Source of the DNA: a virus
Taxonomy: Duplodnaviria; Heunggongvirae; Uroviricota; Caudoviricetes
DNA length: 48,337 nucleotides
Reading direction: 5' to 3' (one strand)
Virus record (IMG/VR): IMGVR_UViG_3300042484_000872
Span: 1-48,337 of that record
The notes under the pieces were generated by a model, which saw nothing but the letters and a program-made list of their open reading frames with translations, searched no databases and had not been told where the DNA came from. Of the stretch, positions 4,693-44,254 are shown in pieces; positions within the stretch are counted from its first letter, which is position 1; the number at the start of each line of letters is the position of its first letter. Position numbers and translations under genes: made by a program.

Positions 4693-5049
4693 TTACTTGC
4701 ACCCATACTTACACTTAGCTATTTTAGCACCTTTTTTAGCTATAACACCACGTCCTTTAAGAATGTCTGCTTTAGTAATCTTTCCATCTTTATTAAGATC
4801 AGGGAATGAACCACCAGTTTTAGCTTTCTTAATAGATCCACCAGATTTTTGTTTAGGCATGTTTTTAGCTTTTCTTCCTGGAAGTGGTAATACAGGAGAG
4901 TTTTTATCAAAAGGAGGTTTTTTTCCTTCTCCACCAACATTTACTGCTGGTTTACCTTTAGCATCTTTCATACCTTTGTATTCATCTGCAGGATTTTGTT
5001 TACTTTTATTTACTTTAGCTCCAGATTGAGCTTTTTTAATTGTTGCCAT
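4693..5049 (-). CDS. Lys-rich small protein with AxxG(G) repeats and an EF-hand-like loop; putative internal virion protein
   Basis: AQSG, QKSGG, AKTGG, AKKG; DLNKDGKITKAD. Confidence 0.75.
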   Translation of the reverse strand: MATIKKAQSGAKVNKSKQNPADEYKGMKDAKGKPAVNVGGEGKKPPFDKNSPVLPLPGRKAKNMPKQKSGGSIKKAKTGGSFPDLNKDGKITKADILKGRGVIAKKGAKIAKCKYGCK

Positions 5050-5068
5050 TATATATTGTTTTTAGTTG

Positions 5069-5314
5069 TTAACAGTTCCACTTGCGAAGAGCAAGAGTTT
5101 TTCTTGTAGGTTCACCATTTGGTTTCTTAGCAGGGCCTTTAACCCCTGACATTCTTGCACAGAATGATTTTTTTCTAGCACCACCTTGAGGTTGGGCTGG
5201 TTTTAAATTACTTCCTGTAGCTTTATTATATTTAGCTCTACCTTTAGCTGTAAGTCCTCCTGTTTTTGACTTTTCTCCTCTACCTATTGAGAGAGATACT
5301 GATTTCTTAGCCAT
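5069..5314 (-). CDS. Small basic phage protein, DUF6321-like
   Basis: GGLTAKGRAKYN..TGSNLK...RKKSFCARM...LALRKWNC, recalled as a conserved phage family. Confidence 0.65.
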   Translation of the reverse strand: MAKKSVSLSIGRGEKSKTGGLTAKGRAKYNKATGSNLKPAQPQGGARKKSFCARMSGVKGPAKKPNGEPTRKTLALRKWNC

Positions 5315-5745
5315 TATTTCTTAGCTTTAGCTTTAATTTTTTTCTCTTGAACTAATATAGCTTTTGTAGGTTTCTTACCAGATCCTTTATTCTTACGGAT
5401 ATTATCCCATAATCCACGTCTAGATGTACTACCATCAGCACGTTTAAGCATCTTACCATTCTTTACGACTGGTTTCATACCAGGCATTCCAAGAGCAGCT
5501 CCTCCAAGTTTACCACGAAGATCAGTGGTCTTTTTGTATATAGGATTATCCTTTCCTCCAGCCATTCCCATAATTGCTCCTAACATAGCTTTTTTAATCT
5601 TACCACCAGCTTTTAATGTGCTGCCTTTAAAGGGGCCTTTCTTCTTGATTAAAGGACCATTAGGAACAGGTGTTATCTTACCACCTTTACGTAATACACC
5701 AGGGCCTACATATGCTGTAGCTTTCTGAGGATTTAACTTAGACAT
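5314..5745 (-). CDS. Lys/Gly-rich basic protein
   Basis: 143 aa; LRKGG, LKAGG, AMLG motifs; TAATG-coupled on both sides. Confidence 0.75.
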   Translation of the reverse strand: MSKLNPQKATAYVGPGVLRKGGKITPVPNGPLIKKKGPFKGSTLKAGGKIKKAMLGAIMGMAGGKDNPIYKKTTDLRGKLGGAALGMPGMKPVVKNGKMLKRADGSTSRRGLWDNIRKNKGSGKKPTKAILVQEKKIKAKAKK

Positions 5746-5906
5746 TATTTCTTCTTATTAGATTTAGCAATTTTTTTGAATGTAAGAGCTAAAGTTTTAG
5801 CTTTTCCAGAACACCCCTTTTTTGTGATAGGTGTGCATTTCCCAGCAGTTCCTCTTTTTTTTATAGAGGCTGTTGCAGATTGAATCCACTTTTTATCAGT
5901 AGCCAT
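5745..5906 (-). CDS. Small basic protein (53 aa, MATDKKWIQSATASIKKRGTAGKCTPITKKGC...), not in the ORF track
   Basis: Manual translation; TAATG overlaps at both ends (5906 and 5745). Confidence 0.8.
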   Translation of the reverse strand: MATDKKWIQSATASIKKRGTAGKCTPITKKGCSGKAKTLALTFKKIAKSNKKK

Positions 5907-6343
5907 TATTTCTTAGACATTTTAGCTCCACACTTAGCCATCTTTGTAGCACCAAGTTGTTTATCTTTAGTAAGAGAAGCTTTTCCTTTAGCACCAGCTA
6001 ATGTTTTCTTTTGAACTTTTGTAAATGCTCCTTTAGGATCTACAGGACCAACTCTTTTGTTTGATGCTTTAAGTCCAGATAGACTTCCACCATTTTTCAT
6101 TTTCTTTTTAGGTGTAGATTTTTTAATTCTTTTACTAGCCTCATTATATCCTCTTATTTCAGGTCCTGAATTATTAGGTTCTTCGCCTTTAATTTTTTTA
6201 TCAAATCCTTTTTTGTAATCAGAACTATCTTTAGCTGTTGGAATGTTAAGATAATCAAAACCTCCAGCTCGAACATTACTGTAATTAGGTTTTAAAGTTT
6301 TTCCTTTCTGAGCTTTAGGAACTGCTTTTTTCATTGTTGCCAT
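5906..6343 (-). CDS. Lys-rich basic protein with AQKG/MKNGG/AKCG motifs
   Basis: 145-aa ORF; motifs shared with the cargo proteins. Confidence 0.75.
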   Translation of the reverse strand: MATMKKAVPKAQKGKTLKPNYSNVRAGGFDYLNIPTAKDSSDYKKGFDKKIKGEEPNNSGPEIRGYNEASKRIKKSTPKKKMKNGGSLSGLKASNKRVGPVDPKGAFTKVQKKTLAGAKGKASLTKDKQLGATKMAKCGAKMSKK

Positions 6344-7792: not shown

Positions 7793-8077
7793 TTAATTTA
7801 AATTTATTTCAAATGTAATCACACTTGATGTTTTAATACTCTTACTCATATCAAGCCTTATTTGAAATATATTACAGAACTTCAATATCTCTTCTATGAG
7901 CATATTGTTATACTTAGGAAGACTTGTTGCTATTCTGAATCTATATGATTCTAAAGTTTTTGTTATCTCTAGACTACATAGTTCATCTACAGAAGAAATT
8001 ACACCCTCCAAATGTGCAAGAAAAACTTCATCGTTATCTTGCATCAATTTAGGAAAGTGTTTTCTGTTTATCTCCAT
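7793..8077 (-). CDS. Hypothetical protein
   Basis: 94 aa; TAATG-coupled to the upstream ferritin-like gene. Confidence 0.7.
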   Translation of the reverse strand: MEINRKHFPKLMQDNDEVFLAHLEGVISSVDELCSLEITKTLESYRFRIATSLPKYNNMLIEEILKFCNIFQIRLDMSKSIKTSSVITFEINLN

Positions 8078-8493
8078 TATGACAATGTTAATAGGTATTT
8101 TGTTTTAGCCGCTTCTCCAGATAAACTATCTGCAAGATTACATACATCGTGGAAAGAATTCTTCTCACCATATACTTTTAAATCTGATGCAAAAGACATA
8201 AGATCTGATACACATTGTTCAGGTTTGCAGTTGGTAAGAGGTTCAATCTTATAAATACCAGGTCTTTTTCCTGTATAGCCCATAATCTTTTCAACTACAC
8301 CATCTTTAAAATCATGTACATAATCATATAATCCACCAAGAGCTTGATGCTCTGCATAACTAGTAGTTTGCCAATGTAGCAGGTGTAATTGCTCATGAAA
8401 GTAAGTAAGCTTTGCAGCTATACTATCTAACGTTAAGCCTTCAGATGCTGATGATTTCATCATGTCATCTGGAAATAATGATTTTACTGCCAT
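8077..8493 (-). CDS. Ferritin-like/Dps-related protein (DUF5856-like)
   Basis: LHLLHWQTTSYAEHQALGGLYD...D..VE matches the Dps helix A/B pattern H(W)...H..L..LY...D...E; ends KYLLTL. Confidence 0.75.
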   Translation of the reverse strand: MAVKSLFPDDMMKSSASEGLTLDSIAAKLTYFHEQLHLLHWQTTSYAEHQALGGLYDYVHDFKDGVVEKIMGYTGKRPGIYKIEPLTNCKPEQCVSDLMSFASDLKVYGEKNSFHDVCNLADSLSGEAAKTKYLLTLS

Positions 8494-15628: not shown

Positions 15629-15828
15629 AATATACCTCCTTTAGCTTTCATTAATTTTTCTACAATAGTTGTTATTCCTTCTATAGTTATATATGCTGTT
15701 GCAATGATCACCCAATCAGATGATGTTAAGTTTCCAAGAAATAGACCAACAGAACCTACAACAAATACAGTAAGTTTTCTACTCACCCATTTGTTTAAAT
15801 AAAAATCTATCTTTTCTCTTGTACTCAT
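15625..15828 (-). CDS. Holin-like membrane protein
   Basis: 67 aa with two hydrophobic segments, SRKL motif and basic C-terminus. Confidence 0.6.
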   Translation of the reverse strand: MSTREKIDFYLNKWVSRKLTVFVVGSVGLFLGNLTSSDWVIIATAYITIEGITTIVEKLMKAKGGIL

Positions 15829-16145
15829 GCTTTAATGTTTTTATACAGCGTAGATAAATATTGTAATATAGCACCAATTGCTATTATTAATCCTACAGTC
15901 CATGTGAAGCGTTTCTTAAACTCTTCTTGTTTCTGTATTTTATCTTCTAAGTCTTTTATTTTGCCTTTAAGCTCAGTTAAATCAGCAACAAATCCCCCTG
16001 TCTTTGTTAATGCATTACCTAATATTGCGTCTACAACTTGTGTTAATTTAGTGTCTATAGAAGTCATCTTCTCCTCTAGATCATATAATCGTTGATCCAT
16101 GCTTTTCAGTTCTTTTTCTACTTGTTTTTCAAATGCGTTTTCCAT
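15825..16145 (-). CDS. Coiled-coil protein with C-terminal TM (XhlA-like/holin-associated)
   Basis: Heptad repeats followed by WTVGLIIAIGAILQYL. Confidence 0.55.
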   Translation of the reverse strand: MENAFEKQVEKELKSMDQRLYDLEEKMTSIDTKLTQVVDAILGNALTKTGGFVADLTELKGKIKDLEDKIQKQEEFKKRFTWTVGLIIAIGAILQYLSTLYKNIKA

Positions 16146-37733: not shown

Positions 37734-40700
37734 TTATAAATTTTTGTATGCTCTTACGACAGAGCTATTCTTGTGATTCTTTTTAATAGAAGATCCATTT
37801 TTATTTTTGATTCCTCCAACTGCTTCTAATGCATCATCTGATGAATCATCTGATTTATCTGTAGCTTTTTTCCAAGCAATTGGTGTACCATTTTTATCCC
37901 AACGTGTAGCTTCAAGTCCTGCTATATCTTGATTACCTTTTGCTTTAGCTCCACCTGCTTCTGTATCAAAGAATTGAAGAGGGTTCCAGTTATCAGCTCT
38001 ATTATCTTTACCAAATCTATAGTTGTACATATTTTCATATATACCTAATGTTTTGTTTTCAAGTTTGTTCTTAGCATATTTATCAGAGATAGAATTAAGA
38101 GCAGCTTGTGTTGTAGCTTTTGTATTAGATAAAGCTTCTGCTTGTCTTCCATATTGTCTATCAAATATTTCAAGGTTTTTAAGTTTAGAATCATTTAGAA
38201 TGTTTCTATTCTCTCCATACACTTTATCCTTCATAGCTTGATTAGCTCTGAACTGTTCTCCTAACACTCCTTGGTTAGCTTGATATTTCTGAGCATTCAA
38301 TTGTGCTTGGGCTGCTGGATTATATCCTACCATTCTTTGTGTTGCTCTATAATCTGCTTGGTTAGCATTTAATTGATCTTGGAATGATATATCATAAGGA
38401 ATACTAAGATCAGGTTGGAATCCTTGTGCAGGCACAGGTTCTAATTGATTAGTAGCAAGAGCATACATCTCTGGATAAAGTTGAGCAGCATCTAATTCTT
38501 CTTGATCAGAAGGTCTTAAATATTTCATTGCTTGATTAGCATACCCCATCCACCAAGGATATTTATTTTTTGTTTCTACTGAAGATGTTTCAGCGGCAGG
38601 AACAATTGCTGTTAACTCTTCTTCAGTTTGAATAGGTTCTGATTGTTTAGCTAAGTTTAATCTAGCACTTACAGTTTGTTCTCCAAAATCACTATCAGGT
38701 TTTACATAAGCTGATGAACCTACTTCTTTGGCTTTAGCATTAAACGCTTCTTGATATCTTTTTACATCAGCTTTATTTTTAGGATCAAATCCAGACCAAT
38801 TAAACCAAGAGTTAGCTTTCTTAGTTTCTTCAAATGCTTGTGGTGTAACTTTACCATGTAAACCTGTTGAAGGATCATATTTTTGACCTTTTGGAATTTC
38901 TTTTAATGCCTCTGCAGATTTTTGCTCAGATTCTTTATTAGAAAACTTTTTTATAGTTCTTTTATACTCTTTAGTCTTACCATCAGCTAAATATTTACCA
39001 GTCCATTTATATCCTTTTGCAATAGCATCAGCATCACTTGTAAATGATGTTGGAGGACTAGTTGTATCTGTTGTAACTGTTTTACCTTCTGCAGCTTTAC
39101 TTATTGCATCACCCCATCGTGCTTCTCTTGTTTGCATAGCTTCTTTATCTATTTTTACTTTACCTCTTGCAAGATCATCTGCAACTAAACCATTTTCTTC
39201 TGCTGTATCATTGATAGCATTTTGAAGAGAAGCTGCGTTTATCTTTTTATCAGCTATATCTTTAAGTTTCATATTAGCTCCTTGTATGTTAGCTTGTAAT
39301 GCTGTCATTTTAAGTTTATCAAATGATGTCAATGGTGTAAATCCATTTAACTCATTAGTTGATTTCTCTATAAGTTTATTTTGCTTAGCTTCTGTTTTAG
39401 AAAGATCAGCTACATAGTTTTTAAACTTCTTACCCTTAGCAGATTTATCTCCTAGCATATCTATATATTGATTAGGTATTTTTAAGTTACCAAATACTAC
39501 ACCAGACTTTTGTACTTCTCCTGTTTGAGGATCCACTGTACCACCTTCTTCTAATTCAACCATAGGTTCTCCTCTTTCAACTTCTACTGGATTACCACCA
39601 TAAGTTACACCAATACCTGTTTCTCCATTAGGAGATCTCTCTTCATGACTCTTACCTCTAAACATAACTGTTTCTCCTGTACCTGGTAGGTAAGGATTAT
39701 GTGAAAGAGTTTCAGCTCCTCCACCCCAATGTGTTTGTAACTCTCCACCTAATCCATATGATTTAATTCCTCCACCATCTTCATAAGTTTCCATAGCTCT
39801 TTCACTTGGAGGATTGTATGATTTTAAATGTCCACCAGCTCTGTATTGATCTTTATGTGCATAATCAGCAAAGTCTTGAGAATCATGATCTCCAAACATT
39901 GTAATCACTTGTGGGTTATATTCAGGATTCATGTATCCACCATCTTTCATATATGATTGATTCTGTCCTTGTAATCCTTTTGCAGCACTTCCCAATGACA
40001 TTGCTATAATATTACGTTGTGTAGCTTCTTGAGCCTTCTTCATTTTTTTACTATTTGTATCTAAGGCATTACCTATCATACCTCCAGCAAACTGTCCAAT
40101 CATTCCTCCAACAGGACCACCAATAGCTGTTCCTGCAGTTTGTCCAATTGTACCTCCTATTTGACCACCAGCATTTTGACCACCCATAAATGATTGTCCT
40201 AATCCTGTAGCTGTACTTCCAATTTGCCCATACATATCTGGAGACATTCCACCACCATCTTGCATGTTATGTAATCTACCACCATGATAAAAAGACTTAA
40301 CTTGATTTGGATTAGTTAATGGTTCATATCCACCATCTGTGTATATGTCATATCCATTACTATATGTATTTTGTATCTCTGTTGGATTACCACCTATACC
40401 TCCACCATCTTGTAATCTAACACCATTTCTAGCAAGAACATTTGTTCCAACACCATATACAGGAAAGAATGCAGAACCAGAATTTATATTATCTTCTGGA
40501 CGCATGTATTTTCTTTGTGTATTTTTATCTACATCTTCTGTTTCAGATGCTTGTCTTGTTACATTACTTATAGCCAAGTTTTGTTCAGCTGCTTTTCTAG
40601 CTCTTCGTTCTCCTCTTAATGCTTGATATCCACTTGCTAAATTACCAACAGGACCTGCATATTTTCCTACAGCATCCATAAATCCTCCACCACCACCTTG

Positions 40701-41288
40701 TTTACCTCCAGTGTTAGGTCCACCTTGAAAAGCATAACCATCATATTGACCTCCTTGATTTTGTAATTGGTCATCATTTAATGATATAGTACCAGGAGTA
40801 TATCCTTCTTGTGGAATACCTGGTTGATTAAACATACTTCCTTGCCATGATCCACCTTGTTGTGCTCTAGGAATATTAGTTCCATATCTAGCACCTCCTA
40901 AAGAAGAAAGCATTCCGCTCATTTCTCCTCCACCTTCACTACCACCTTCACCACCACCACCTAACATACTCATTATGGAACTAAGTCCACCTCCTTCACT
41001 ACCACTTGCTTCACTTTGTTGAGGAGCATTTTCTTGTTGTGCTAATTGTATAGCTCGTCTTTCAGCATCTGTTGATCCTGTAATTAACTTATCGCTATCA
41101 TCAATATACTCTTGTAGATTTATTGGATTAAATGAATTAATGTTTCCTGCATTATTTAAAGATGCACCTATCTGAGCTTTCTTAAACTCTTTACCATGCA
41201 CCTTCATGAATGCTTCTTCTGATGGATATTTTTTGTAAAAGCTTTTCTCATCTTTTACTTTTGCTATTTTTAAAATCTCTGCTTTCAT
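37734..41288 (-). CDS. Virion cargo protein with many xxxGG motifs and a glycine zipper
   Basis: 1184 aa; GKSHE...EVERGE motif, GGQIGGTIGQTAGTAIGGPVGG zipper, Gln-rich C-terminal half. Confidence 0.7.
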   Translation of the reverse strand: MKAEILKIAKVKDEKSFYKKYPSEEAFMKVHGKEFKKAQIGASLNNAGNINSFNPINLQEYIDDSDKLITGSTDAERRAIQLAQQENAPQQSEASGSEGGGLSSIMSMLGGGGEGGSEGGGEMSGMLSSLGGARYGTNIPRAQQGGSWQGSMFNQPGIPQEGYTPGTISLNDDQLQNQGGQYDGYAFQGGPNTGGKQGGGGGFMDAVGKYAGPVGNLASGYQALRGERRARKAAEQNLAISNVTRQASETEDVDKNTQRKYMRPEDNINSGSAFFPVYGVGTNVLARNGVRLQDGGGIGGNPTEIQNTYSNGYDIYTDGGYEPLTNPNQVKSFYHGGRLHNMQDGGGMSPDMYGQIGSTATGLGQSFMGGQNAGGQIGGTIGQTAGTAIGGPVGGMIGQFAGGMIGNALDTNSKKMKKAQEATQRNIIAMSLGSAAKGLQGQNQSYMKDGGYMNPEYNPQVITMFGDHDSQDFADYAHKDQYRAGGHLKSYNPPSERAMETYEDGGGIKSYGLGGELQTHWGGGAETLSHNPYLPGTGETVMFRGKSHEERSPNGETGIGVTYGGNPVEVERGEPMVELEEGGTVDPQTGEVQKSGVVFGNLKIPNQYIDMLGDKSAKGKKFKNYVADLSKTEAKQNKLIEKSTNELNGFTPLTSFDKLKMTALQANIQGANMKLKDIADKKINAASLQNAINDTAEENGLVADDLARGKVKIDKEAMQTREARWGDAISKAAEGKTVTTDTTSPPTSFTSDADAIAKGYKWTGKYLADGKTKEYKRTIKKFSNKESEQKSAEALKEIPKGQKYDPSTGLHGKVTPQAFEETKKANSWFNWSGFDPKNKADVKRYQEAFNAKAKEVGSSAYVKPDSDFGEQTVSARLNLAKQSEPIQTEEELTAIVPAAETSSVETKNKYPWWMGYANQAMKYLRPSDQEELDAAQLYPEMYALATNQLEPVPAQGFQPDLSIPYDISFQDQLNANQADYRATQRMVGYNPAAQAQLNAQKYQANQGVLGEQFRANQAMKDKVYGENRNILNDSKLKNLEIFDRQYGRQAEALSNTKATTQAALNSISDKYAKNKLENKTLGIYENMYNYRFGKDNRADNWNPLQFFDTEAGGAKAKGNQDIAGLEATRWDKNGTPIAWKKATDKSDDSSDDALEAVGGIKNKNGSSIKKNHKNSSVVRAYKNL

Positions 41289-41289
41289 A

Positions 41290-42849
41290 TTAATTATATT
41301 TGTTTAACCATCCACCGACAGTTGGTTTATTGTAATTGGTAAAGTTAGTTAGATTATCTAGATTCTGCAAACCTTTCTGTTCTTGTCTTAATCCATTCTT
41401 AGCCATAGGATATTCAGTTACCTTCTTTCCTTTGAACTTATAGTTCTTTCCTGGTTTCATCATTTTTACATCTCCTGTATCTGATACACCAAGGACATCA
41501 TAAGGAACTCCTTCCATTGTAATGTCATTAGAATTGATTTCTGTTATCTCTCCTGGATGATCCCATTGTCCTCTATCATCTTTAATAACTTCTTTATCTT
41601 CATATTTAGATAACCAAGATCCATTCTTACTAATAGTCTTAGGTTGATAATCTAATCCATTCTGATAGTATTGCATCTCTTTACCATTCTGTGCACTAGC
41701 CATTGTTTTCTTTGCATACTTCCCATTACTAGGAGCAGCTCTTTGTGTACGTGCATATGAGAAACCTACAGCTCCTGGAATAGAAGCACCCATTGCTGCT
41801 TCAGGAACATAATTAACTGGATAAACAGATCCACCCATTTGATAGTGTGGAGTTATCTTTCTTGTATTATTAGGACTTTGTTCTTCTAAAGAAGATAAGT
41901 CAGATGTTCTATAATTAGTTTGATTACCAATATAGTTTGCTGAACCTTGTGTATAATCTTCTACATCATAATATTTTGGTTGTCTTACTTGTTGTCTAAT
42001 TTGTGGAAGTTCTGCTTCTATATCTAAATTACCATGTACTAATCCTTCTGGTTGTAGATTATTTTGTATTCCTTTTATAAGTTTTCTTTGTATAGGTTCA
42101 AATCTTCCTTCTCCTTCTCCTGTATGTATAGTTTTATATTGAGGAGCATTTTGATCTTTTACTATTACTTGTTGTTGTGGTTTTTTATAAAAAAAGTTAG
42201 GTTTTTTAAAATCTTCATATGTACTTCTTTCTTTTGAATATGTATCTGGAGAAAAAAAATGACTTTCTTTATATCTAGGTCCTTCTCCGTGATAGTCCTC
42301 ATATTTATAAGGTTTTATATTAGGGTTTATTGAGTTTTTAATACGCTGATCTTCTGCATTTTTTTCATCAAGAAATAATTGATTATAAGTTTTTGTTTTT
42401 GTTATTTTTTTAATTAACTTAGGGTCAACATTTTTTTCTGAATCTTTCCATTTTCCTTCAATAGGTAGATCATGTAAAAGTTTTGATATATCTTTAGTTC
42501 CTTCATACAATGAAACACTATCCTGATAAGCTTTATATCTAGGATCATTTTTTGATTCTACATATATAGGTTTAACTTTCTTTCCTTTTTGAGCATTAGG
42601 AATTTCTCCTCCTTCTTCAAACTGTCCTCCCCATGCAGGAGACTCCCATTGGGGACCATTGAAAGTTCCTTCACCAACAAACCCTGGGGGTAAACTTACT
42701 TTAGAATCATTATAATTATCTAACCATCCTCCGTTCTTCATGTTGTTAGAATTATCTCTACCACATTCATGACATATGTACATATCCTTCTTACTAGAAT
42801 CAGATTTGTCCCATGACCATCCACATGTGCATTTTACTTTACTAGCCAT
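41290..42849 (-). CDS. Virion (internal head) protein with N-terminal Zn ribbon and repeated GxWLxxY motifs
   Basis: CTC...CHEC; MKNGGWLDNY, SKNGSWLSKY, VGGWLNKY. Confidence 0.65.
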   Translation of the reverse strand: MASKVKCTCGWSWDKSDSSKKDMYICHECGRDNSNNMKNGGWLDNYNDSKVSLPPGFVGEGTFNGPQWESPAWGGQFEEGGEIPNAQKGKKVKPIYVESKNDPRYKAYQDSVSLYEGTKDISKLLHDLPIEGKWKDSEKNVDPKLIKKITKTKTYNQLFLDEKNAEDQRIKNSINPNIKPYKYEDYHGEGPRYKESHFFSPDTYSKERSTYEDFKKPNFFYKKPQQQVIVKDQNAPQYKTIHTGEGEGRFEPIQRKLIKGIQNNLQPEGLVHGNLDIEAELPQIRQQVRQPKYYDVEDYTQGSANYIGNQTNYRTSDLSSLEEQSPNNTRKITPHYQMGGSVYPVNYVPEAAMGASIPGAVGFSYARTQRAAPSNGKYAKKTMASAQNGKEMQYYQNGLDYQPKTISKNGSWLSKYEDKEVIKDDRGQWDHPGEITEINSNDITMEGVPYDVLGVSDTGDVKMMKPGKNYKFKGKKVTEYPMAKNGLRQEQKGLQNLDNLTNFTNYNKPTVGGWLNKYN

Positions 42850-42852
42850 TAC

Positions 42853-43374
42853 TTATAATGTTACGTGTTTCCAATTTCTATTTTTTATAACATGTCCAAT
42901 TAATCCAAAGCTTACATTGTATTCTTCTGCTAATTTTTGTAAAGTATATTTTCTTGGTATATACTTTTCTCGTATCTCAACTACTTGTTCTTCAGTTAGT
43001 TTAGAAAGATAATGTTTACTACCTTTAGATTTATTACCTCTACCATCTTTTATCATTTGTTGAGAGTTCATTTTTAATGTTCCCCATTGTAAATTATCTG
43101 CTTTGTTATTTCTTCTGTTATTATCTAAATGCATTACAATTGGATAATTTTCAGGATTTTCACAAAATACTTCAGCTACAAGTCTATGTATTCTCTTCAT
43201 CCATTTTTTATTATGTATATGAACTTCTACAAAATTATAATTAATATCTGCAGGAGAGTCAATGTATTCTCTTAATATTTTACCTTTATTTCTAATACCT
43301 GCAGATCTAATCTTACCAAGATTACTTGCTTCATATAAATTATTTAAACTAGGTATTGGTTTCCAATTTTCCAT
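42853..43374 (-). mobile_element. Free-standing NUMOD4-HNH homing endonuclease with C-terminal HTH
   Basis: WKPIP..NNLYEASNLGKIRS (NUMOD4); HRLVAEVF...HLDNNRRNNKADNLQW (HNH_3); SKLTEEQVVEIR...LAEEYNVS (HTH). Confidence 0.9.
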
Positions 43375-43381
43375 AAGTATT

Positions 43382-44254
43382 TTATTTATAACTTATCATA
43401 GCAGGAGTTAATATGAATTGACTTACTAGATGCGTTGTATTACTGTTGTCTAAGATATGACGAATTTTAAGCTCCTTGGCTCTTAGCGTAGCTTTCTTGA
43501 AGCTTCTAGGACCATAATCCATATTAGCTTGATTCACCACCTTATCTATAGAAAGACTTTCACAAGAATTTCTAAATAAAGGAATTTGAGAACTTATCTC
43601 TGCAGCCCAGAATGTATTGTACTGATAGAAGTTATCACTCTTAGTGTAAGTGATAGTTTTACTTTCAGTATTAAGAATAGGGTATTGCATATACGCTTGC
43701 ATGTTGTGAAGAGGTTTAGCTACAAGTTCTAATATCCCTGAACTCTGTTGTCCATTATATAGAACAGCTTTGTTAAACCATTTGTTATTTGTTTCTATTC
43801 TTGTATTGTAATTAAATACACCATCTAATATAGGAAGATATTCATATGCTTTTGTATAATCTTTTACATTCTGAAGAATCTCATCTTGGAATTGATACGC
43901 AAAAGGATATTCAATTATATATGGTTCTATGTTCCCATAGAAATAATTATATAATCTTATATTAGTTAAATGTCTCCACAGACAAGCTGTTACAGATTGT
44001 GTAAATGTTGAGTCTACAAATTGGGTTTGACTAAATGTTTCTAAAGAAAATGTTCTTATTGTATTACATTTTCCTGTAGATGTTAAAGTTAACAATTTAA
44101 CATTGTTATTCACTATATAACTTATACCACGTATCAGAGTTTTCTTAGATACATCTACAGCAATAACATCTCCATACTCAGTGGTGATAGTAAATGGACC
44201 AGCATTAGGTCCAGCCTTTGTTAATTTTATTGTTATAACTTTTGTCTTTGCCAT
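43382..44254 (-). CDS. Tail structural protein (C-terminal-part homologue of crAss-like tail stabilisation/muzzle proteins)
   Basis: LWRH...YNYFYGNIEPYIIE, FNKAVLYNGQQSSG and YQYNTFW motifs; follows the large tail gene. Confidence 0.6.
   Translation of the reverse strand: MAKTKVITIKLTKAGPNAGPFTITTEYGDVIAVDVSKKTLIRGISYIVNNNVKLLTLTSTGKCNTIRTFSLETFSQTQFVDSTFTQSVTACLWRHLTNIRLYNYFYGNIEPYIIEYPFAYQFQDEILQNVKDYTKAYEYLPILDGVFNYNTRIETNNKWFNKAVLYNGQQSSGILELVAKPLHNMQAYMQYPILNTESKTITYTKSDNFYQYNTFWAAEISSQIPLFRNSCESLSIDKVVNQANMDYGPRSFKKATLRAKELKIRHILDNSNTTHLVSQFILTPAMISYK

Follow-up and report, generated by a model that had tools for sequence, protein, structure and literature searches.

A nine-residue peptide unit, Phi-x-x-G-(G)-x-Phi-x-x, occurs singly or in pairs exactly nine residues apart in proteins of a marine crAss-like phage, whose 48,337-nucleotide record (the window, in full) we have analysed. 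The tag is placed at the termini, and where modules meet, in one subset of probable ejection proteins: a candidate distant homolog of the crassvirus cargo protein C1 (crAss001 gp45), a 519-aa mosaic protein (a putative effector carrier), and small basic proteins. We propose that the tag serves as a docking or beta-hairpin handle by which ejection proteins are loaded and put in order, a reading to which we assign a probability of about 0.45. We found no published description of this motif.

The six proteins studied (1184, 519, 118, 81, 143 and 145 aa; Table 1) are all encoded on the minus strand and contain 9-16% Gly. Homology and gene position suggest that they are probably packed into the particle and injected. 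The muzzle-like gene (1950 aa) is followed in order by a 290-aa gene, HNH, P0002, P0001, an 899-aa gene and the gene for the 4635-aa virion RNA polymerase (vRNAP). CheckV estimates the completeness of the record at 62%, and it may be incomplete; a large share of the genes in the late operon is without assigned function.

Table 1. Tagged proteins and tag sites, with positions in the window and residue numbers in brackets.
Feature	Position	Strand	Basis
P0001, 1184-aa cargo protein, candidate distant homolog of crassvirus cargo protein C1 (crAss001 gp45)	37734..41288	-	gene position, Gly-zipper, BLASTP, hhalign
P0001: N-terminal helical head ending in tag KKAQIG (36-41)	41166..41288	-	conserved
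P0001: tag AQQGGSW (142-148)	40845..40865	-	phased pair with ARYG (133-136), nine residues upstream
P0001: tag LQDGGGI (292-298)	40395..40415	-	
P0001: tandem pair FYHGGRLHN / MQDGGGM (333-348), 9 residues apart	40245..40292	-	
P0001: tag array upstream of CARG1-like core, MKDGGYM (447), YRAGGHL (482), YEDGGGIKS/YGLGGEL (502-517)	39738..39950	-	
P0001: CARG1-like core (538-585), ending in tandem nonapeptides VTYGGNPVE / VERGEPMVE / LEEGGTVDP	39534..39677	-	BLASTP to gp45, phased pairs
P0002, 519-aa mosaic ("polyvalent"-type) protein: Zn ribbon, three folded modules, tag-bearing linkers	41290..42849	-	
P0002: Zn ribbon	42760-42831	-	
P0002: tag MKNGGWLDNY (37-46), immediately after Zn ribbon	42712..42741	-	
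P0002: composite junction FEEGGEIPNAQKG (77-89), two units 9 residues apart	42583..42621	-	
P0002: linker with YQMGGSV (336), AQNGKEMQYYQNG (386-398), KNGSWLSKY (408-416)	41602..41844	-	conserved columns
P0002: C-terminal linker, AKNG (483-486) and terminal tag TVGGWLNKYN-stop (510-519)	41293..41403	-	
Cluster of four small basic proteins (118, 81, 143, 145 aa)	4693-6343	-	pI 10.3-11.2
118-aa protein: leader MATIKKAQSG, tag AKTGGSF (76-82), AKKG (104-107)	4693..5049	-	
81-aa protein, Pfam DUF6321 (E 1e-23), one degenerate copy SKTGGL only	5069..5314	-	
143-aa protein: LRKGGKITPVPNG (18-30) and LKAGGKIKKAMLG (44-56), each a 9-spaced pair	5314..5745	-	
145-aa protein: leader MATMKKAVPKAQKG, tag MKNGGSL (82-88) opening conserved C-terminal module, AKCG (136-139)	5906..6343	-	

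The first-pass annotation had proposed a shared hydrophobic-x-x-G(G) motif, and every instance that it listed is present in the translations. Composition-preserving shuffles, global and in local 40-residue blocks, show that the proposal holds for a tighter pattern than the one it named. Loose Phi-x-x-G is not in excess in the six proteins (85 against 80-82 expected), whereas Phi-x-x-G-G (23 against 10-12), A-[QK]-x-G (10 against 3.4-3.9) and [AMLFY]-[QKER]-x-G-G (14 against 1.9; z about 9, local shuffles included) all are. A second hydrophobic residue, two positions past the GG, had been overlooked; the full Phi-x-x-G-G-x-Phi unit has 16 copies in five of the six proteins (1184 aa, 519 aa and three small basic ones) against about 2.3 expected. 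The 81-aa protein showed no motif enrichment in the shuffle test. The enrichment of the tight unit is confined to these proteins: the remaining 32,845 residues of the proteome hold 19 copies against 15.9 expected, which is no excess. Counts in the homolog families are 767 against 123 and 371 against 35 expected. In this marine lineage the tag takes three dialects: Phi-[QKE]-x-GG-x-Phi, (P/K)-x-A-Q-x-G and GG-W-L-x-K-Y.

Spacing provides a measure that uses no tuned pattern. Ten pairs of loose Phi-x-x-G units lie exactly nine residues apart in the six proteins, against 1.64 expected, a number reached in none of 5000 shuffles (p about 2e-4). The homolog families show the same phasing (185 against 51 and 703 against 130 expected; at 18 residues, 329 against 134). 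Because of this period, most single-Gly instances, such as AQKG and YQNG, can be read as the second halves of tandem pairs. Geometry this regular is what a structural or binding element would show. A chance origin of the motif from Gly-rich, low-complexity composition might be argued from the Gly content of these proteins and the lack of excess of the loose pattern, but local shuffles preserve regional composition, the phasing exceeds every shuffle, and columns are invariant across families; the shuffle enrichment, the proteome contrast and the phasing together rule this reading out.

P0001 has more than 1900 homologs. Its head is conserved (K36, K37 and G41 are invariant in 62 homologs), and in the AlphaFold2 model pLDDT falls below 50 from residue 38 onward. 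All nine tag sites fall where pLDDT is below 50, and the GG is still invariant in 86 homologs, as it is in the FYHGGRLHN / MQDGGGM pair; in the tag array, likewise of pLDDT below 50, the invariant positions are 450-451, 485-486 and 514-515. Longer homologs carry a module of about 280 aa inserted directly after LQDGGGI and ending in YEDGGSI, so that the insert is flanked by tag copies on both sides. Such conservation within predicted disorder typifies segments that acquire their fold when bound.

In P0002 the tag likewise follows module boundaries. This family (1392 homologs) swaps its modules, and some members carry ART-PolyVal (PF18760) or DUF6973. Within 536 large indels of the family, a tag copy lies no more than three residues away in 36% (8% for random positions) and no more than six away in 53% (14.5% random). 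At MKNGGWLDNY, where G41, W42 and L43 are nearly invariant, a second copy brackets insertions in homologs, and at the extreme C-terminus G512, G513, W514 and L515 vary little or not at all. Nearly all P0002 tag sites have pLDDT below 50, among them those in the 340-424 region of the AlphaFold2 model. P0002 resembles the polyvalent proteins of phages and conjugative elements (PMC5512222) in being a mosaic of swappable modules encoded among virion genes, and it has the several unrelated domains and rapid domain shuffling by which that class is recognised. Unlike them, it shows no recognisable effector enzyme or other conflict-type domain (ART, MPTase, nucleases and others): P0002 gave no match in Pfam or PHROG, and no MPTase-PolyVal was found in the genome. 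Iyer et al. (2017) name no junction peptide, and the words "linker" and "glycine" are absent from their text (PMC5512222). We considered P0002 as a C2 (gp46) homolog and rejected this on comparison.

The small basic proteins carry the tag in a further setting. Homology among 28 loci related to the 145-aa protein begins at the tag (residues ~79-81), and the middle of the protein is hypervariable. The leader MATIKKAQxG, or a close variant, opens 39 distinct small ORFs and occurs at 26 of the 28 related loci; two copies are in this genome. T4 internal proteins bear a capsid targeting sequence (CTS) that is cleaved by gp21. Like the CTS, the leader is a short conserved N-terminal sequence on small, basic, otherwise unrelated, co-encoded proteins, and its short motif recurs in larger, putatively packaged proteins. 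It differs in that the consensus is unrelated, no S77-type protease was found (PF03420, no match), and copies of the tag also occur inside proteins, at C-termini and in tandem at a period of nine residues.

Several comparisons suggest that P0001 is a distant, if weakly supported, homolog of C1/gp45. The P0001 core (538-574) matches the gp45 CARG1 core by BLASTP (46% identity over 37 residues, E 0.003), and hhalign aligns P0001 991-1029 with gp45 688-729 at 59% probability. PF25725 (crAss_CARG1) scores P0001 537-575 at E 0.53 and 10.8 bits, below its cut-off of 27, and gp45 itself at 2e-66. The Gly-zipper at P0001 367-438 gives weak DUF456, MccV and C19orf12 matches, as does that of gp45. P0001 also shares with crassvirus C1 a gene position after the muzzle gene, an N-proximal Gly-zipper membrane segment, a helical C-terminal part and a putative G-x-SHEE...VE-x-GE core. 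The marine lineage differs from crAss001 in its extra A-Q-x-G and GG-W-L-x-K-Y dialects and in bearing the tag on the mosaic 519-aa and small basic proteins as well, which crAss001 lacks.

The tag itself is present in gp45, at FAEGGGL (260), AKDGGDI (370), YCGGKV (388) and AFGGWL (427). Together with six further gut C1 proteins, gp45 carries Phi-x-x-GG-x-Phi units near both ends and internally; in gut C1 proteins a copy falls among the first 25 residues and one among the last 20. To the eye, YGLGGELQTHWGG in the P0001 tag array looks like gp45 AFGGWLNTQGG; the alignment of YGLGGEL with AFGGWL is likewise by eye. In the mature crAss001 virion, gp45 425-552 is modelled as a continuous chain on the portal wing, and 214-245 lies in the tail barrel, with the connector proposed to thread through the portal (PMC10172136). 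[quoted passage not shown] In their account of this structure, Bayfield et al. (2023) never apply "motif" to gp45 and do not mention cleavage or a protease (PMC10172136).

The first-pass annotation had also suggested that one recognition code is shared by cargo and small proteins that are otherwise unrelated and mostly disordered. We find no other kinship among them, and specificity, conservation in homologs, placement at disordered termini and joints, and presence in crAss001 C1 all support a shared code. Its reach within the cargo is narrower than supposed: P0001, P0002 and small proteins carry the tag, but no copy is present in the 4635-aa vRNAP or in the proteins of 899 and 1585 aa. Because this largest cargo is without it, the tag cannot be a general packaging signal.

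A Gly-Gly motif also invites the interpretation that the units are cleavage sites, at which a phage or host protease frees modules and removes a leader of about 10 residues, on the model of T4 gp21 and its CTS or of the processing at Gly-Gly in adenovirus and ASFV. Proteases commonly recognise Gly-Gly: adenovirus AVP cuts after the GG of (M/I/L)-x-G-G-x, ASFV pS273R after that of G-G-x, and double-glycine leaders are matched with C39 peptidases. The tag shares with such sites a hydrophobic residue upstream of Gly-Gly and an occurrence in small basic and polyprotein-like virion proteins. Copies at the module boundaries of polyvalent-type proteins, a conserved leader resembling a cleaved targeting peptide on many small proteins, and a possibly incomplete record whose late operon is largely unassigned would all accommodate processing, and Iyer et al. 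(2017) argue that polyvalent proteins must be processed (PMC5512222). Nevertheless, six-frame searches of the genome found no Peptidase_S78, S77 (PF03420), ClpP, C5 (PF00770), C48 (PF02902), C39 (PF03412) or MPTase-PolyVal (for PF00770, PF02902 and PF03412, no match at E<=1), and neither a clan CE nor a C39 protease was found; PHROG and Pfam scans found no protease family in late genes, and the cargo proteins contain no HExxH. The hydrophobic residue sits at P5, three before the GG, and not at P4 as for adenain, DUB/PLpro and double-glycine/C39 enzymes; the residue before GG and the Q position vary. Pairs phased at exactly nine residues, and copies 5-10 residues from C-termini (GGWLNKYN-stop), have no obvious use to a protease. 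In crAss001, gp45 425-552, AFGGWL included, is modelled uncut, and peptides from 79-320 are found in virions (PMC10172136). The earlier proposal of a prohead-protease site is weakened accordingly, and we regard cleavage as unlikely.

Partner-less structural joints, in the form of small beta-hairpin or turn elements or homotypic "stickers" with no dedicated receptor, would cap insertable modules with an easily unfolding, flexible linker or glue the cargo into a condensed mass. The nine-residue phasing, the use of tag-type units in the beta-rich CARG1-like core, the multivalency (nine copies in P0001), the predicted disorder, the Gly-, Tyr-, Asn- and Gln-rich context, and copies that run contiguously across junctions, as one module's C-cap and then the next module's N-cap, are all consistent with such joints. 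A generic linker, however, needs neither near-invariant W-L-x-K-Y and A-Q-x-G nor free-terminus copies and a conserved N-terminal leader, and AlphaFold2 did not fold the pairs into hairpins, although this is weak evidence; we consider the joints doubtful. RTX nonapeptide repeats (GGxGxDxUx) form a calcium-binding beta-roll, and the tag resembles them in its nine-residue period, Gly-Gly turn, hydrophobic position and secondary 18-residue peak. It lacks G at position 4 and the conserved Asp at 6, its hydrophobics are elsewhere, and its runs of 1-3 units fall short of what a beta-roll needs. Modules are clearly exchanged at tag points, as they would be if the tag were a conserved nucleotide stretch for DNA-level recombination, like the His boxes and Gly islands of T-even tail fibres. 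Yet the copies share no nucleotide stretch beyond their Gly codons, flanking codons differ, and conservation lies in the amino acids, chemically similar substitutions included, across hundreds of homologs, leaving recombination linkers very improbable.

The docking or beta-hairpin handle that we favour would be disordered alone and structured only against a repeated site, for which the portal wing, the portal-tail conduit or another cargo protein are candidates. During assembly it would anchor swappable modules in the cargo zone, and it would leave the chain able to thread for N-to-C ejection. The CARG1-like core is partly made of tag-type units, and its crAss001 counterpart binds the portal; the linker copies may bind in their turn, to a putative partner. 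The docking motif suggested earlier, inside the capsid, fits better than a protease site. As a wider and rather improbable extension, the nonapeptide could be a general Crassvirales address code, in which a few residues suffice to load a protein and to fix where it sits along the capsid-portal-tail conduit and therefore when it is ejected. Such a code would explain the free swapping of modules and small proteins that keep the tag.

Crassviruses are the most abundant human gut phages and are common in the sea, and they carry about 5 MDa of protein cargo. To our knowledge, the literature describes no crassvirus scaffold, protease or packaging signal. A phased tag on swappable ejection proteins, common to marine phages and crAss001, offers a mutable handle, and the idea is open to direct testing, since both crAss001 and DAC15 have been cultured and a near-atomic map of crAss001 is available. 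The tag accounts for the mosaic evolution of these genes and provides a simple rule for spotting candidate injected proteins in metagenomes, unannotated small basic ones included. If the address code is true, any tagged protein could be packaged and injected by a crassvirus.

The first-pass annotation reported a glycine motif in cargo and small basic proteins. Six proteins are concerned: the 1184-aa protein P0001, a putative distant homolog of the crAss001 cargo protein C1 (gp45), the 519-aa mosaic protein P0002, and four small basic proteins. All instances listed in the annotation are present in the translations. Measured against global shuffles and 40-residue local shuffles, enrichment over composition varies with the definition of the motif. 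The loose form, Phi-x-x-G (Phi, hydrophobic residue), is not enriched in the six proteins (85 observed versus 80-82 expected). Enrichment is strong for [AMLFY]-[QKER]-x-G-G (14 versus 1.9) and moderate for A-[QK]-x-G (10 versus 3.4-3.9). A logo built from homologs revealed a second hydrophobic position two residues past GG. The resulting form, Phi-x-x-G-G-x-Phi, has 16 copies in five of the six proteins (~2.3 expected) and 19 in the other 32,845 residues of the proteome (15.9 expected), where the matches also lack the polar second position. No excess was found in the muzzle-like, 899-aa, 4635-aa or 1585-aa proteins.

Pairs of Phi-x-x-G spaced exactly nine residues apart number 10 against 1.64 expected, with 10 or more in 0 of 5000 shuffles; examples are FYHGGRLHN/MQDGG, FEEGGEIPN/AQKG and AQNGKEMQY/YQNG. 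The same spacing is found 185 times in the P0002 family (51 expected) and 703 times in the P0001 family (130 expected), which has a second peak at 18 residues. The spacing thus defines the true unit as a nonapeptide, Phi-x-x-G-(G)-x-Phi-x-x, and most AQxG instances with a single Gly turn out to be the second member of a pair. In the extended copies, the first Gly of GG is encoded by GGT in 14 of 16 cases, although the genome as a whole uses GGA as often as GGT; this bias may come from selection against strings resembling GGAGG or from codon pairing.

In AlphaFold2 models of P0002 and P0001 (input alignments of 68 and 62 sequences, respectively), nearly all tag stretches have pLDDT <50. The P0002 model has three folded modules (residues ~90-130, 220-335 and 425-485); in the P0001 model, it is the helical parts that fold. 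Five P0001 sites nevertheless keep GG without exception across 86 homologs, and residues 435-600 rank among the best-conserved stretches of this protein. The P0002 family (1392 matches) has highly mosaic architectures, in which tag copies bracket inserted modules. At large indels in this family (n=536), a copy lies within three residues of the boundary in 36% of cases versus 8% at random, and within six residues in 53% versus 14.5%. This indel-based test replaced a first breakpoint test on BLAST HSP ends (3486), which were too noisy and had no association with the motif. Long P0001 homologs carry an insert of ~280 residues straight after LQDGGG(I/V), and the end of the insert is YEDGGSI. The C-terminus of P0002, GGWLNKYN-stop, is kept across its family. 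At its N-terminus is a CxC...CxxC zinc ribbon (42760-42831, minus strand) that only part of the family possesses; some homologs without it start right at the MKNGGWL tag. A Foldseek search of the PDB with the P0002 model gave nothing at E<=0.001, and the profiles of the two families had no significant match among PDB sequences. A weak profile likeness of P0002 to ribosomal protein bL27 (E 0.17) was dismissed, with no Pfam support at E<=10.

The record is a single contig of 112,337 nt (~30% GC), and the window covers its positions 1 to 48,337. Genes for the large terminase, portal and major head protein, identified by PHROG matches, lie on the minus strand outside the window; the portal is ~25% identical to portals of gut crAss-like phages. 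Transcription enters the window through the muzzle-like gene and proceeds through the 290-aa ORF, the HNH endonuclease, P0002 and P0001 to an 899-aa protein, a 4635-aa protein with an FtsK-gamma domain (virion RNA polymerase polyprotein, vRNAP) and a 1585-aa protein. This matches the muzzle-cargo-RNAP gene order of crAss001, where muzzle gp44 is followed by cargo C1 gp45, C2 gp46 and the RNAP proteins (PMC10172136). The 1950-aa ORF matches phrog_15100 to profile position ~1587 and continues into a Thr/Cys-rich extension, and the 290-aa ORF matches profile positions 1589-1778 of 1783. Judging from this division, the muzzle-like gene looks split, with the ancestral protein's C-terminal piece now in an ORF of its own. 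The HNH/NUMOD4 gene interrupts the otherwise conserved muzzle-cargo block. We found no deposited phage close at the DNA level, and tblastn of P0002 against 50,697 phage records gave 0 matches.

The four small proteins (4693-6343) form the end of the same late operon and are very basic (pI 10.3-11.2; Lys+Arg 26%). Relatives of the 145-aa member occur in 28 IMG/VR loci; all start with MATIKKAQxG or a close variant, and homology resumes exactly at KKMKNGGSL. This leader heads 39 distinct small ORFs across the 28 loci, in three classes by C-terminal module. The small basic proteins form a cassette family, in which the conserved leader is followed by a hypervariable middle unrelated between phages and then by a conserved, Lys-rich C-terminal module of three kinds; two of the three kinds terminate in tails with Cys (e.g. 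KCKYGCK). The 81-aa protein lies inside the leader-bearing cluster and itself lacks the leader; a suspected relationship to gp45 373-425 was dropped when BLASTP gave no alignment. The region of the calcium-loop motif has weak Pfam matches to Dockerin_1 (E 0.01) and EF-hand_5 (E 0.06).

Features of the late genes in and at the edge of the window
Feature	Position	Strand	Remarks
Muzzle-like 1950-aa ORF	44259-50111	-	gene extends past window end
Separate 290-aa ORF	43382-44254	-	downstream of muzzle-like gene
HNH/NUMOD4 homing endonuclease gene	42853-43374	-	between 290-aa ORF and P0002 gene
Late-operon ORF	15825-16145	-	phrog_937 'hemolysin', E 6.5e-6
Late-operon ORF	8077-8493	-	phrog_858 'starvation-inducible transcriptional regulator', E 1e-13; contains HEQLH
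81-aa basic protein	5069-5314	-	Pfam DUF6321, E 1e-23
EF-hand or dockerin-like calcium-loop motif DLNKDGKITKAD	4693-5049, residues 84-95	-	directly after AKTGGSF tag

Residues 538-574 of P0001 are 46% identical to the gp45 core (BLASTP, E 0.003), and the C-terminal helices of the two proteins align by hhalign. PF25725 (crAss_CARG1), the Pfam family of this core, matches P0001 only faintly and spans residues 424-555 of gp45, a domain seen on the portal wing in the virion (PMC10172136). Units occur in gp45 at positions 260, 370, 388 and 427 (AFGGWL) and near each terminus. The copies at 260-388 lie in a 179-residue connector proposed to thread through the portal (PMC10172136), and the copy at 427-432 falls within the stretch of chain built into the mature-virion model (PMC10172136). 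A search for gp45 homologs gave only proteins 96-100% identical, and our C1 comparison set was drawn from deposited genomes. Copies number 2-8 per protein (~1 expected) in six further C1 proteins from gut Steigviridae. Typical forms are F/Y-x-[DE]-GGGIHIK, an N-terminal copy among residues 1-25 and K-S-K-G-G-K-L at the C-terminal end. The presence of units in gut and marine C1 proteins alike points to a tag that is ancestral to C1 across Crassvirales. By homology to gp45, the CARG1-like core of P0001 would dock on the portal; it ends in three phased units, VTYGGNPVE/VERGEPMVE/LEEGGTVDP, and thus the same unit type builds part of this putative portal-docking domain. Two proteins of Cellulophaga phage phi4:1, gp040 and gp041, are virion proteins by MS and have an 80-residue block in common with P0001 (798-877; 51% identity). 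They contain a few similar units (MLKSGGEL, FQSGGSF and LKEGGEV), so the tag may reach beyond Crassvirales.

We tentatively read the tag as a putative docking handle (probability roughly 0.45). A structural or docking role is favored over a cutting site by the fixed nine-residue spacing, the copies at termini, conservation without autonomous folding, and the one gp45 copy that is resolved and uncut. That the units are cleavage sites is unlikely. Adenain, DUB and C39-type sites have their hydrophobic residue one position nearer GG, and in this phage's tag it is too far away by that position. The annotation had advised looking for a phage protease elsewhere in the genome, and six-frame, PHROG and Pfam searches detected none. 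Six-frame searches for Peptidase_S78, S77, ClpP, C5, C48, C39 and MPTase-PolyVal gave nothing at E<=1, PHROG and Pfam scans found no protease in the late genes, and HExxH is absent from the cargo proteins; the 'zincin-like EEIVH' in the 1585-aa protein does not fit the HExxH pattern. The record is linear with a CheckV completeness of 62%; little is probably missing from it, since relatives measure 110-117 kb. The crAss001 structure paper has no mention of protease, scaffold or cleavage (PMC10172136), and we found nothing relevant in the literature on a Crassvirales prohead protease or scaffold. MALDI mass lists of crAss001 gel bands 1-10 (PMC6235969 supplement 14) contain no clear gp45 peptides when compared with predicted tryptic masses, and are therefore uninformative on gp45 size in virions. 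Despite the null searches, a protease of the host, or of an unrecognised kind, is conceivable.

Alternatively, the units could be joints or stickers that have no partner, which we consider doubtful. A DNA-level recombination linker is very improbable, as the codons are not the same between copies, and chance recurrence of the motif is scarcely credible. A universal packaging signal is excluded, since the tag is missing from three giant proteins, the RNA polymerase among them.

We found no published description of the tag in the crassvirus structure or polyvalent-protein literature, and the paper on polyvalent proteins is silent on any junction peptide (PMC5512222). New here are the proper nonapeptide unit and its nine-residue phasing, its specificity across the proteome, its quantified tie to module boundaries, the leader family of small proteins and the lack of a detected protease. 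Besides the C1 lineage, the tag marks the small or mosaic proteins whose evolution proceeds by swapping modules, and its extension to crAss001 and gut C1 proteins brings the docking-handle idea to proteins in which it is testable.
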